64,000 nucleotides of DNA, from positions 62,186,001 to 62,250,000 of the forward strand of contig CM097885.1 in NCBI GenBank assembly GCA_044892525.1. Reading direction: 5' to 3'. Shown one piece after another: positions 39,200 to 50,778 of the stretch (its first letter is position 1; every line of letters starts with the position of its first letter). Source of the DNA: Schmidtea polychroa (lineage: Eukaryota). The position numbers were made by a program, and so were the translations under genes. The notes under the pieces were generated by a model. It made no database searches. It was given only the letters and a program-made list of their open reading frames with translations, and was not told the origin of the DNA.

Positions 39200-39979
39200 G
39201 ATGGGATCATCTGCAATTGTTGCGAACGTTCTCATTTCCCCATTCAGTGTCCGCGAGTAATTCATCTAAATCGAAGAACTCGGAGGCATTTTCCTCCCAT
39301 GTTACTCCAGCCGCGGAGATGATTCGCCCTGGGATCCTGAGTGTCAGATCTACTACTGCAGGGTTATTGTTACTGTTAACGGGGTTGTCTGTTGAGGATT
39401 TGCTTTGCTTGACGGACGCCCGCTCCCGTTGTTTTCTTTTGCGTTCGGCACGCGATAGCTGTCGACGCTTGGGTTTTTGACGCCGTTGAGTTATTTTGTG
39501 ATGCAGCAGACGAAAACGCGATATTGGGCTGCGCTTTACTAGTCCCGGTGAAGATAAGGTCCGGACATTTGGGAGAGAGCTCGGTCTCTACGCACTCACG
39601 ACAGGACTTCTTGAACGGAGGTGAAGACTTGGCAGAGGTATCGTGGTGCACGGGAAAAATATTGTCTGCTTCGTTGATAGGGATCTTGACAATTTTCCGC
39701 GTTGTTGCTGCTGTAGATACACTTTGTGCAACGCTTCCGATTGTTCCTTTATCAAACTTCTTTGTGCACGACTCTCGGAGATTAGAGCGTCACGACAATG
39801 CTCGCTACGATATAATTTTTATGCATTTCCTTCATTTGCACTGGGCTGAACCATGTGCCTTCCAGCTCGTCGATTTTGCGCTTGTAACGACCGATCTGCG
39901 TTTGTAAATCTTTAATAATCGAGTTTTTGTCTGCGCAGGAGAAACAAGGACGGAGAACAGGTTTGGCATTTGGTAACAT
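39200..39979 (-). pseudogene. CxxC-'GTWFSP' protein (ORF2 type 2), about 3 frameshifts
   Basis: LRPCFSCADKN...GTWFSPVQMKE, EHCRDAL...QSEALHKVY, IFPVHH, LSRAERKRKQRE and FDLDELLAD occur in successive frames and align to 41937-42695. Confidence 0.8.
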
Positions 39980-41528
39980 ATTGGATCGCTACAAAGAAGA
40001 AAATTAGGATGACTATAACTACAAATCGCTAATCTGATATAACCTTCTCCTCACGGTCGGAACTTCAGCGAGGGAAAAGGACAGGACACCCCGATGAGGA
40101 AAACATTTGCCCCTTTTGACGATTTATCGCTATCCCTTGGTATTTTATTTACAAAAAATCCATCCAACTACTAACATCATCGCCTGACGAAGGCAAATAT
40201 TTTATGAAGATCCTACCATCGTAAAGTTATTGACTCATAAGTTTCCTTTAAAATCCTGAAGTCATCCTTAGATCCGAAATCAAAATGTACAGCGCTAGTT
40301 GATTCCCACAAAGTTTCCCCGTTCACTCCTAACGGTACTCTTACTTGGACACTTAAGGAGTTATATGGGTAAATCGATTTACATTCAATTCAACTATGAC
40401 ACTCGGTTCGAAAATTCTAGTTATTATCTTTAGTGCTGAATTTAATAGTTTCATTACCATTTCAATACTTAGTTTACGCTCTTGACTATGATCTGTTAGG
40501 TTTAACAAGAAAAATTTATAATTATTTATGATAATTGGTTTTAAATTTACTTATTACCAACAATATTGAGTCTAAAATTTCTATCATTAGTTATAAACAT
40601 TAATTTTAAATATCTATCACCATTTGACTACTTAATATTTAAAGTTATCTACTAGTGGGCTTAGAATTTAATACCTACTGTTATCTCTAATTTATCTTAT
40701 TGCGGCACGAAAATCTGAACATGAATCTCTGTGAATTAACACTCACTGCAGTTATACTCGTCTGTTATCACGCACTACGATAGAACTTAAATAGCATATG
40801 TCATGTGGTGGAACAGGTGCTTATCGATTATGTTGCTTCCCACTCATGTTCCGTATAGATATCGCAAACCATCGTTAGAAAACTAAATGTGCGTGTGTAT
40901 CATTCAATGGGATTTTATTTACTACCTCAGGTTGTCTAGAAGATTATTCGATATTCTGTTATAACCTGCTAATTCGCATCTGACTGCAATGTGGTAACTC
41001 GTGATTTCCTTAATGTCTAGTATTTCAACGTTGGAAGATTGTATTGGATCGGCCACACAATATCTACGAATCTTATTTCAGGAGCGAATGTTCCGAATGA
41101 ATCGCAGAAAGGATATTTATTTCGGTAGTACCAGATTTGTTAGATAAATAAAATATCGTCGTGAATATGGTCTTATGATTTAATTCATTTCTGTAAATAT
41201 TAATATCCTATTCCTTGTATGAGTGTCGTAAAGTAAAAATGAAACTCTCGAATCCGGTTTATTAGCGAAAGGTGCAATATGAACTCAAATGTTGAGACGT
41301 TGGAGGTGAGTCTGAACGAATTGTGATTGTAGCGACAAGGGGTCAGATTTACAGATAATATGACTCTCTCGAACACGGCGATTTAATGTTGCGAAATGAT
41401 GATAATGTTGGTATATGTGGGGAAAAAGAAATTTGTTGCACACATCATCATTTCACATCTCACATACCCTGCATCATTACTCCGCTCAGATACTCCCCAT
41501 ACATACACCAAATGATCATGTACATATT

Positions 41529-41675
41529 CCCACGCATGAGCCCGTGGTGATATTCCACGTTGGTGCTGCTCACACGGGTTGGAAAAGGTTAGCAGGTGAG
41601 CCTCTGCCTTAAGACTACTCCTAACCCTTTCTCGATACGGGTTCTACGGTGCCTCAGAAGGTCTTACCCCGTCCC
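41529..41675 (-). ncRNA. Conserved LTR structured RNA element, copy 7
   Basis: GTGTGAGC-AGCACCAA-CGTGG aatatca CCACG-G-GCTCATGC; GGTTAG/CTAACC stem. Confidence 0.8.
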
Positions 41676-41936
41676 ACATACACAATTCGGTCCGACCCTG
41701 GTCCAAGGGGACGACCTTGTATTATCACCTACATTCGACATCATCTTTCCACTCGTATCAACTTCGATATCTCACCTGTTAAAATCAATCATCAGAAACA
41801 ATAAAAGATGTATTAACTTATAACAAATCATTACACGCAGAATAATCAAGAACGGTTTTACATGTAAACATACAGCATTTATAAACACGCAAGTTCACTT
41901 CGGGACCATGCATAGAACAAGGCACCTTTGAATTGA

Positions 41937-48772: not shown

Positions 48773-50161
48773 CTACTCAGTCCTACTCTTCGCGTCTCGC
48801 CTCACCGCTATTTTTATGTATATAGTGTCGTTTCTCGTCATGTCTTCTACTTTCCGCTGTAGGATGAAATTCGGTGCTCCAGTTGCTGGTCCTTCTTCTT
48901 CCAAGGGCCTTTGGTAACATACGAGGTTTCCCGCTGTATGGAAACTCTGTTCATGTATACTTTGATAGTTCATCATTGCGAGGTCTATTTTTGCTTTGAA
49001 TGGCCATTCTATTAACTCGTCGTATAGCCCTTTGCACATCAAGAAGAATACTGAGAAATGCGTTCCGTATGCACTTCCATCCCCGTTGGGGTATGCTTTC
49101 ATTTTCATTTTATACCCGTTTTTCCATGAGTAGAATGCTGGACTTAGTAATGTTGTATCCTTTCCATTTCTCGCTCTCTGCATCTTCTCTTTTACTCCCG
49201 TTATTTTCCATATGTATGGAGCCGTGGGTATTAATTCGTTGAGGTTTAATTCGCTTACCTTTTGATGTAGTTCTTTCACCATAATGTTGCTAGTTTCCAC
49301 TAGATCTGTCTGTATCTTTGTACTTGTTCTCGCCTCTTCAAATGCTTCCTTTTCTTCCAATAGTTCTTTTACCAACGCTTTTAGCGAGACTATTTCTCTT
49401 TCTAAGTTCTCGGTTTTTCTTTCGTTTTCTTGTAATACCGTTGACCATATTTCCGCGTGTGTTGATACGTTTTCTGCTAGATGTTGGGGTAATTCCCCTC
49501 GGTGTAATTGTTTCTGACATCCCCATTTTCCTAGCACACACGTTATCTTTTTTCTTTCACATTCTTTTAGATGTTGAGCGAGTTTTATTACTCCAGATTT
49601 ATCGCATTTATTGGGACATTCTCCTCTGAACCCTGCGCACACTTTCTCCTCTTGTATGTTGTGATGTTGACTGATTAGTTTTTTCCAGGTGTCGGTTTCT
49701 CCGCAATACTCACATTTCTCCAGTCTTTCTTCGCATCGACTTTGATGTTCTGCTTCTTCATTGACTTTAATCTCTTCCTGGCAACGTTTGCATTGACTGA
49801 TTTTATACTCGCATTGCTCCATATGTTGCCTCACTTCCCATATCACTCCTCGCCAATTGCATGGGGTGTTTTTACATCCTAAATTTGAATTTAACATATC
49901 TTTCACGGCTGCTTTATCTTCGTTTGTATCTCCCAAACTTGTTATCATGGTTTCTTTACATACTGGGCACCGTTGTGGTCCCTTCTTTATTATCTCCTCT
50001 ACACATTCTCTGCACATTCTGCATCCACATCTGGTTTGGTGAGGTTCTCTTAATAAGCTCTTGCATATTCCACACGTTACATGGTTGTGTATTCGAATTG
50101 TGGTGGACTTTCTGACTTGTTCAACAATTTCCTTGAATTCTTCTCGTTGTCGCTTATCCAT
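48773..50161 (-). CDS. TRAF: Complete intronless TRAF-family protein (RING, TRAF zinc fingers, coiled coil, MATH), 462 aa
   Basis: CGICKSLLREPHQTRCGCRMCRECV...CPVC; repeated Cx2-4C...H...C fingers; YIWKI...SPAFYS...GYKM...YPNGDG...GTHFSVFF...EWPF...DTIYIKIAV. Confidence 0.93.
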   Translation of the reverse strand: MDKRQREEFKEIVEQVRKSTTIRIHNHVTCGICKSLLREPHQTRCGCRMCRECVEEIIKKGPQRCPVCKETMITSLGDTNEDKAAVKDMLNSNLGCKNTPCNWRGVIWEVRQHMEQCEYKISQCKRCQEEIKVNEEAEHQSRCEERLEKCEYCGETDTWKKLISQHHNIQEEKVCAGFRGECPNKCDKSGVIKLAQHLKECERKKITCVLGKWGCQKQLHRGELPQHLAENVSTHAEIWSTVLQENERKTENLEREIVSLKALVKELLEEKEAFEEARTSTKIQTDLVETSNIMVKELHQKVSELNLNELIPTAPYIWKITGVKEKMQRARNGKDTTLLSPAFYSWKNGYKMKMKAYPNGDGSAYGTHFSVFFLMCKGLYDELIEWPFKAKIDLAMMNYQSIHEQSFHTAGNLVCYQRPLEEEGPATGAPNFILQRKVEDMTRNDTIYIKIAVRRDAKSRTE

Positions 50162-50250
50162 TTCTATAATTATATATATACATATATTCGTTACTGATAC
50201 AGTTTCGTATTTTTATTTACAGTTATTTACATTGCTATTTTAGGTTATAT

Positions 50251-50610
50251 TTATTGGCTGGAAGAGTCGGCCTCTTGTCCGCCCTCTTCCCTACTGGTTA
50301 ACCATTCTGACCAGTCTTCTATCTCCTCTCGCTCCATCTCTTCCGCGATTCTTATTAACTCTTCTTCTTGCACCTGGCTGTATCGTGATATTCGGTCTAT
50401 CTCTCGCTGCATTTGTTCTATTTTTATTCGTTGGTCTTCGATTATTCTTACATAACTGAAGCCTTTATTTAAACTTTCGACTAAGCTTCTTTGTACAGCG
50501 AGTCCTTGTTCCTGTAAATTCGAAATCACTTGAGTTAACATTGCACATTGTTGTTTCCACATCTCCTCGGTTGTCGTACTGTGATTTACTTCCTCGCCTA
50601 TTCGCTCCAT
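50251..50610 (-). CDS. Small accessory coiled-coil protein (start likely MERIG at 50610)
   Basis: Heptad/acidic ORF between the polyprotein and TRAF; TTAAG|AATG. Confidence 0.65.
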   Translation of the reverse strand: MERIGEEVNHSTTTEEMWKQQCAMLTQVISNLQEQGLAVQRSLVESLNKGFSYVRIIEDQRIKIEQMQREIDRISRYSQVQEEELIRIAEEMEREEIEDWSEWLTSREEGGQEADSSSQ

Positions 50611-50778
50611 TCTTAATTTATATATACTTTTCAACCCTTATCCAATTTTATTTTTATATTATTTATCCCCATCGTTATATAATATTGATACCGCGGTTAT
50701 ATAAAAATATATCATACTGTTATATAAATAAATATTATCTACTTACTTTTTACAATCTATATACAGTCATAATCCATT

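Follow-up and report, generated by a model that had tools for sequence, protein, structure and literature searches.

A conserved set of putative splice acceptors in a planarian Burro-type retroelement, probably served in cis by leaders in its long terminal repeats

How does a retroelement express a row of separate accessory genes that lies behind its polyprotein? The question is raised by a 64,000-nucleotide stretch of the Schmidtea polychroa genome (GenBank assembly GCA_044892525.1, contig CM097885.1, positions 62,186,001 to 62,250,000 of the forward strand; hereafter the window, whose own numbering is used throughout), which contains the 3′ two-thirds of a Burro-type element on the minus strand, with the 5′ long terminal repeat (LTR) beyond the window. 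The original prediction saw here, between 39979 and 50613, an array of accessory genes each opening with a splice acceptor right before its ATG, to be used either by one donor spliced to many acceptors, as in complex retroviruses, or by spliced-leader (SL) trans-splicing. Our comparisons indicate that the acceptor set is a real, conserved feature of a known element, and that, as far as sequence comparison can tell, these AG-before-ATG sites are probably best explained by cis-splicing in which a leader from the LTR joins one of some eight acceptors.

All ten quoted contexts are present on the minus strand as written, with the acceptor G at 50612 (AAG), 50164, 48561, 47346, 46579 (CAG), 42696, 39989, 27468, 11011 and 7200; a second AG, the TAG at 46576, stands beside the CAG near the 46574 start. 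The series is real and exceeds chance, but it is not one array: five accessory open reading frames (ORFs) occupy the interval from pol to the 3′ LTR, 42695 lies inside that LTR, 39979 belongs to a homolog in an older, interrupted LTR, and 27466, 11008 and 7197 mark genes in the LTRs of another, sister Burro family. Nor does a short AT-rich spacer precede every start, as had been proposed, since 42695 and 39979 follow kilobase-long, intron-like LTR sequence. The chance test used 15 ORF starts, seven from the present family and eight from the sister family, among which homologous pairs are not independent (about nine ORF classes). YAG (Y, pyrimidine) fell within 6 nt of the ATG at 13 of these 15 starts versus 108 of the element's 529 other sense ATGs (Fisher P = 1e-7), and HAG (H, any base but G) at all 15, while control rates for YAG were 10/57 at ATGs in non-coding LTR and 0.16–0.18 in shuffle and sliding nulls. 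Taking strictly the first ATG of each frame lowers the YAG count to 10/15, since a second ATG is the start used at 47343, at 46574 and in one sister ORF; diverged copies often do not have the upstream ATG of those frames. Of four putative host intronless TRAF genes, a small control, none has a YAG as close as 4 nt to its ATG.

Comparison among copies strengthens the case. Across 20 diverged copies of the present family, with rows counted by eye and two misaligned rows dropped (the LTR gene of locus L042 and the 46162 frame of L024), an AG was retained at 78 of 79 comparable starts, with swaps between TAG and CAG. The distance from AG to ATG slides between 0 and 10 nt among these copies, which rules out a fixed-position Kozak base. 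In the sister family, gene order is unchanged and an AG stands ahead of every start at only 27–37% protein identity; that family also carries an additional BIR-RING gene, opened by TAG|ATG. Several conserved acceptors, one per accessory ORF, are thus found, as in cis-splicing of the complex-retrovirus type, and the splice-acceptor reading of the AGs is well supported by the cross-family conservation, the TAG/CAG swaps and the sliding distance.

The five internal genes, all on the minus strand, begin behind pol with a 119-aa ORF at 50251..50612, whose acceptor AAG|AATG keeps its AG in 19 of 20 copies and corresponds to TAG|GAATG in the sister homolog. It is followed by a TRAF-like ORF of 462 aa with RING and MATH domains in Pfam (48773..50164; TAG|AAATG, YAG in 18/18 copies), by ORFs of 345 aa (47517..48561; TAG|ACAAAGATG, TAG or CAG in 14/14 copies, TAG|ACAATG in the sister family) and 236 aa (46633..47346; TAG|AAATG, YAG in 13/13), both without Pfam matches, and by a last accessory gene at 45917..46579 (CAG|TAGTATG, YAG in 7/7). 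The last gene is split into two frames here (46574 and 46162), is a single ORF of 192–218 aa in five of the seven other copies listed, and has an N-terminus that appears hydrophobic by eye. The spacers (50778–50611, 50250–50162, 48772–48555, 47516–47344 and 46632–46575) measure 58–218 nt. Protein databases gave no match to sister-family ORF2 and otherwise only 12 distant TRAFs, hence no transcript-derived N-termini for comparison.

The donor side is clearest in the sister family, whose LTRs contain a TATA-like box, a short and highly variable exon 1, a donor and two LTR genes. In the sister LTR at 25990..31024 (minus strand, limits approximate), the exon-1 donor reads AGCA|GTAAGT (GT at 30870), the ORF1 acceptor is that at 27468, and ORF2 is preceded by TTCAG|TG (G at 26813). 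Further pairs of LTR genes lie at 9660..11011 (minus strand; ORF1 acceptor 11011, ORF2 acceptor TAG|TG with G at 10097), at 5754..7200 (minus strand; ORF1 acceptor 7200 with the ORF broken, ORF2 acceptor CAG|TG with G at 6204) and at 35023..36119 (plus strand; the start region of ORF1 is damaged, and the ORF2 acceptor is CAG|TG with G at 35649). Conserved donors close to the predicted transcription start are therefore present: among the first 30 of 1652 LTR motif matches, one of them broken by an insertion, the donor reads A|GT in 28 of 29 intact LTRs (23 by pattern and five GTGAG forms by eye, four of the five confirmed). An A at −1 is unusual for animal donors. The ORF2 acceptor, in turn, is YAG|TG in 7/7 aligned copies and at all 12 loci with an ORF2 match among 20 fetched, and the 44 codons past |TG are under coding constraint (pS 0.73, pN 0.21; 78 pairs), with no Met in 9/13. 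Since the A of exon 1 and the |TG of the acceptor together spell ATG, the fixed A of the donor is explained if exon 1 joins the ORF2 acceptor and skips that of ORF1. This favours an arrangement in which one donor would serve two acceptors in the sister LTR and the ORF2 AUG would be built by splicing, for which the start codon of Drosophila gypsy env, made by splicing as AT|G, is a precedent (PMC2585583). The sole exception to the A|GT rule is a G|GT donor, and there exon 1 holds an open, phase-1 ATG, which preserves the reading frame. As a rule for the sister family, conservation of a coding exon 1 was rejected: such an ATG is open and in phase in 9/18 and absent from some subfamilies. When an ATG is instead placed right before |TG, as an SL would supply it, the frame stops within 0–45 codons in 12/12.

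The leader of the present family has a different layout, seen in the 3′ LTR on the minus strand. A promoter-like reverse CCAAT box (45145–45152) and TATA box (45125–45133), together spanning 45125..45152 and arranged in the same way in diverged LTRs, precede predicted leader exon 1 (45079..45104), which runs for about 25 nt from the predicted transcription start to donor D1, CAG|GTAAAA. D1 opens a putative cap-proximal micro-intron of 45 nt (45034..45078; GTAA..CAG) that repeats exon 1 exactly at its 3′ end. A predicted exon 2 follows (44859..45033) and ends at donor D2, TTTG|GTAAAT (GT at 44858), beyond which the sequence is U-rich and intron-like. Diverged LTRs show a donor-like site at the place of D2, judged by eye, with A or G freely before it, as expected because the present-family LTR gene has its own ATG. 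That gene (41937..42696; 252 aa, EGTWFSP motif, no Pfam match) opens at TAG|ATG and has YAG 0–10 nt upstream of the ATG in 7/7 comparable diverged copies; its broken homolog at 39979 (TAG|CGATCCAATATG, minus strand) lies in the 3′ part of the older related LTR, 38720..41401 on the minus strand (lower end approximate), which the Burro insertion interrupted and whose promoter half is in locus L002. After the LTR gene, no AATAAA or ATTAAA occurs in 41936–41406; the last AATAAA words, at 43026–42719, lie upstream of its acceptor, so the gene may be in U5 with the poly(A) signal within an intron.

Among 13 LTRs found by pattern, 12 have the micro-intron (GTAA..YAG, 45–52 nt) with an exact repeat of exon 1 (15–27 nt), and in 11 of these 12 the repeat begins 27–31 nt after the TATA box, where a start site is expected. 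Exon 1 is only 54% alike on average between copies, though the repeat is exact within each. One related LTR (L002) has a single copy of exon 1 and no micro-intron. The copy of exon 1 at the end of the micro-intron reads as a trace of reverse-transcribed spliced RNA. The homogenization of the repeat within each copy (45034–45104; L029–L040) is of interest in its own right, as a possible self-renewing intron and as a marker of the start site.

Acceptor-like sites also occur ahead of pol. An IAP-type RING gene lies in the 5′ leader, between the primer site and gag, in all families seen (L001 4842–5321, L011 5990–6472, and L015), with a TAG directly before its ATG in each; one such context reads TAG|ATATG. 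A pyrimidine-rich AG stands 579 nt upstream of the first gag ATG, and at 500–580 nt in both families (L001 ~3233, L011 8782); no open frame leads from this AG to gag in the copies read. The C-terminal end of the polyprotein (~50990–50779) is a hydrophobic segment beginning at CAG|ATG, possibly a further small membrane protein, and sister copies L004 and L006 have a small ORF at AAG|ATG that resembles it.

In the mechanism that we propose, a single promoter in the 5′ LTR would transcribe the whole element, and its short leader, made of exon 1 and, in the present family, of exon 2 as well, would be cis-spliced to one of about eight acceptors, each just before an ORF: those of the LTR gene or genes, the leader RING gene, the pre-gag site, and the five or six genes that follow pol and precede the 3′ LTR. 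Every ORF would in this way come first on an mRNA of its own, and the weakness of the A/U-rich acceptors would spare enough largely unspliced RNA for polyprotein and genome, as in complex retroviruses. Genomic RNA may itself be spliced at the cap-proximal micro-intron, in which case strong-stop cDNA could pair with the copy of exon 1 that the unspliced 3′ R region retains, and DNA synthesis would restore the micro-intron and overwrite the repeat. The micro-intron would thus be rebuilt at each replication cycle. The option of one donor and many acceptors gains comparative support from the conserved LTR donors and from a start codon split across the junction. That LTR donors serve the LTR genes is strongly indicated; that the same donors reach internal genes 17–24 kb away is less firmly suggested, and for the five internal genes D1/D2 at that distance upstream, a GTAAGT at 50746 and an SL are all candidate partners.

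Several observations weigh against this proposal or are neutral toward it. No spliced RNA was seen, although only assembled contigs, from three runs that we take to be RNA and one other run, were available over 38600–52000 and most RNA joints were not displayed, so that this is no evidence either way. A joint between 49920 and 46521, found in two runs that we take to be RNA (X1, at depth 110, and X7), shows microhomology and no GT–AG and is probably an expressed deletion derivative. No spliced-out genomic copy was found after one sister exon-1 variant (a variant present in 4/30 loci; no positive count was run), and none spliced at the 42696 acceptor among 40 scored of 535 candidates. The LTR without a micro-intron, L002, is explicable by recombination as well as by splicing. 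For the split start codon, an in-frame ATG lies 6–35 codons upstream in the unspliced sequence of 6/12 ORF2 copies, at unconserved places, AG plus TG also spells GUG, a possible initiation codon, and the whole A|TG argument concerns a sister-family LTR gene and not the five internal genes. The acceptors of those five genes have only 40–50% pyrimidines in the preceding 20 nt, compared with 60–80% at the LTR genes; one of them is AAG, and their sequence is similar to the ATTGTA units repeated in the spacers. Finally, sharing of acceptors between cis- and trans-splicing is common in parasitic flatworms, averaging 66% of sites (PMC12582326).

That sharing is relevant to the rival that survives best, a hybrid in which the LTR genes are cis-spliced while the cassette from pol to the 3′ LTR is processed in operon fashion, through 3′-end formation in each spacer and SL trans-splicing at the AGs, either wholly or shared with cis-splicing. 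We consider it unlikely, and more doubtful still the fuller version in which Burro joins cis-spliced LTR genes, having an AUG made by splicing and a cap-proximal intron that renews itself, to a five- or six-gene cassette behind pol that borrows the host SL to express captured TRAF and IAP genes. SL trans-splicing is reported in Schmidtea (PMC10899757), the spacer lengths fit the operon spacing of about 100 bp given for Macrostomum (PMC8629364), partial leaders have been noted at LTR and LINE loci of parasitic flatworms (PMC12582326), and the LTR donors are distant, with other acceptors in between. The flatworm SLs reported in that article all end in ATG, yet 9 of our 15 starts would be out of frame with such an ATG and the distance from AG to ATG drifts between copies; this weakens SL addition only in part, because cis- and trans-splicing share acceptors in parasitic flatworms. 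The early stops at the sister ORF2 acceptor count against the hybrid as well, as does the lack of AATAAA enrichment in the spacers, where the word is present at 5 versus 5.5 and 7 versus 6.8 expected. Upstream cis donors exist and are reported to out-compete SLs (PMC4558846), so acceptors near ATGs without a complementary upstream donor, as in an SL operon, were not what we found, although for the internal genes the LTR donors are remote; cleavage in the spacers, moreover, would cut the genomic RNA. SL addition, the second option of the original prediction, is therefore disfavoured for the LTR genes by frame and neither supported nor excluded for the internal genes.

A promoter near the end of pol is an improbable source of the internal mRNAs, whether spliced downstream from the donor at 50746 in the manner of foamy viruses or replaced by separate promoters as for Oikopleura Tor env. 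The site in question, AAAAA|GTAAGT (50741..50751, minus strand, GT at 50746), lies about 30 nt past the pol stop and may be an internal donor or a U1 site; its GT is kept in 293 genomic copies, against one copy with another base (an extra A), and it would give short introns of 0.13–4 kb. Both Tor env (PMC4402516) and foamy viruses (PMC7828637) have documented internal promoters, and TATA-like words are common in the spacers. Against this, the six sister-family spacers contain no GTRAG, inspection by eye showed no TATA box where one would be expected upstream of the donor, no copy in the genome spliced from the 50746 donor was found, and separate promoters would need no YAG.

The spacers of both families are about 10-fold enriched in TGTAHATA (8 versus 0.8 and 7 versus 0.8 expected), which is absent from the 10.5 kb of pol and matches what we take to be the Pumilio element and a forkhead site; it is often tandem, right after stops and right before acceptors. 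TGTA is unlikely to act as a CFIm poly(A) element, as planarians reportedly have neither the UGUA motif nor CFIm59/68 (PMC5068929). It is very improbable that the internal AGs are not acceptors at all but belong to a translation-initiation or RNA-binding motif of TGTA-rich repeats, with the genes reinitiated, internally entered or silent: the weak pyrimidine tracts, the lack of a displayed RNA junction and the enrichment of TGTAHATA, a word that TGTAG resembles, would fit, but the AG is invariant while its flanks vary, Y is kept at −3, the position slides relative to the ATG, LTR genes, whose pyrimidine tracts are clear, carry this signature too, and the ORFs are conserved as proteins.

The carrier of these acceptors is a young Burro-type Ty3/gypsy element, to judge from its sequence. 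It measures 30.6 kb between its LTR limits, with the multi-kilobase LTRs of Burro elements over 30 kb; its 3′ LTR (41406..45658, minus strand, about 4.25 kb, TGTT...AACA) shares 99.5% identity with the 5′ LTR (L001) across 4255 nt, and comparison of the element ends shows a 4-bp target-site duplication, TTAT (41402–41405). The family has at least 293 internal copies in the genome. The primer site after the 5′ LTR is presumably tRNA-Pro-like. A 749-aa gag-side ORF (61405..63654, minus strand, from 63654) is parted by an in-frame stop in this copy from a 3506-aa ORF (50779..61299, minus strand) in which Pfam places, in one frame, a Monjiviricetes-type fusion glycoprotein (env; PF24664, residues 752–1091) upstream of protease (PR; RVP, 1281–1372), followed by reverse transcriptase (RT; RVT_1), RNase H and integrase (rve), along with ankyrin repeats. 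Env-like sequence before the PR–RT–RNase H–integrase series and extra MATH/TRAF, ankyrin and RING domains, with BIR in the sister family only, are features of Burro, and the element matches the published Burro description by size, LTR length and domain set (PMC6431247), which would point to a dugesiid planarian as host. The 4791-aa frame of the sister family, with MATH, resembles the 4873 aa given there for Burro-1.

Other observations concern the surroundings. Blocks near the LTR 3′ end (~41720–41520, 38960–38830 and 26190–26060) are common to both families and may form a packaging or priming structure; Rfam gave no matches in the three loci scanned. A short TTAGGG-repeat run (37754–37740) lies within a transposase remnant that we take to be tigger/pogo-like, and fragments of a small, unrelated gag/protease-like element lie beside a 14-bp minisatellite (17859–19851, plus strand). 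Elsewhere in the genome, contig C2 at ~105–124 Mb, a region at 3–5 Mb and other places hold many MATH exons with open frames of ~180–210 aa, probably host TRAF clusters, and there are four intronless TRAFs of 442–467 aa that are ~26–31% identical to the element TRAF.

Among the LTR retroelements of planarians, Burro elements are the largest, and their cargo includes genes of apoptosis and ubiquitin signalling; Burro is reported to be up-regulated on piwi knockdown of the smedwi-2 type (PMC8532177). If the proposed cis-splicing holds, a Ty3/gypsy element would have reached regulation of complex-retrovirus grade independently, with some eight or more mRNAs from one promoter, and the cap-proximal intron suggests how a retroelement could keep an intron that is spliced out of its own genomic RNA; one narrow literature search, by titles and abstract openings, found no such self-renewing cap-proximal intron described. 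Thousands of such LTRs (1652 motif matches in one family) carry a promoter and a donor that could splice into host genes, and TRAFs encoded by transposable elements may be miscounted as host genes. The map yields exact, testable junctions.

Burro/GYPSM1 as published shares with our element the length above 30 kb, LTRs of 4–5 kb, an env-like fusion glycoprotein that stands between gag and pol and shares one frame with them, ankyrin and TRAF/MATH domains and, with the sister family, BIR (PMC6431247). Genes encoded in the LTR, donors, acceptors and a model for accessory-ORF expression are not described in the available portions of PMC6431247 and PMC8532177, in which "splic" occurs three times, never on Burro, and not at all, respectively. 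A literature search found no description of Burro splicing or accessory-gene expression; the original genome paper and the supplements of PMC12582326, outside its scope, may bear on novelty. Among single-gene precedents, the start codon of Drosophila gypsy env is likewise created at a junction (PMC2585583), though as AT|G, in one spliced mRNA and from a donor near gag, whereas here it would be A|TG, with donor and acceptor both inside the LTR and the acceptor one of many. C. elegans Cer1, also of the gypsy class, makes a spliced accessory mRNA, CERV, with a conserved acceptor before the ATG (PMC10309623); unlike the tandem set of separate genes seen here, CERV is one five-exon mRNA that overlaps the polyprotein. 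The SL operons of flatworms and nematodes are alike in their tandem ORFs, ~100-nt spacers and acceptor near each ATG, and unlike in that our element has upstream cis donors, frames mostly incompatible with an SL-terminal ATG and no enrichment of poly(A) signals.

The closest functional parallel is with complex retroviruses, in which, as in foamy virus, one LTR promoter and many suboptimal acceptors precede the accessory ORFs (PMC7828637). The element differs from them in its Ty3/gypsy domain order with env before protease, in its captured TRAF, IAP and RING genes, in having genes inside the LTR and in introns of up to ~24 kb. No Rev-like export protein was identified; the basic LTR proteins, which have no Pfam or Atlas assignment (all Atlas matches were below 0.9), are candidate export factors like Rev, Rex or CERV. 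An LTR promoter with small non-coding leader exons is also characteristic of lentiviruses and deltaretroviruses. The gag–pro–pol–env order and retroviral RT clade of Retroviridae were not found (env precedes PR, and no tree was built), and the element may therefore work like a complex retrovirus without being a member of the Retroviridae.

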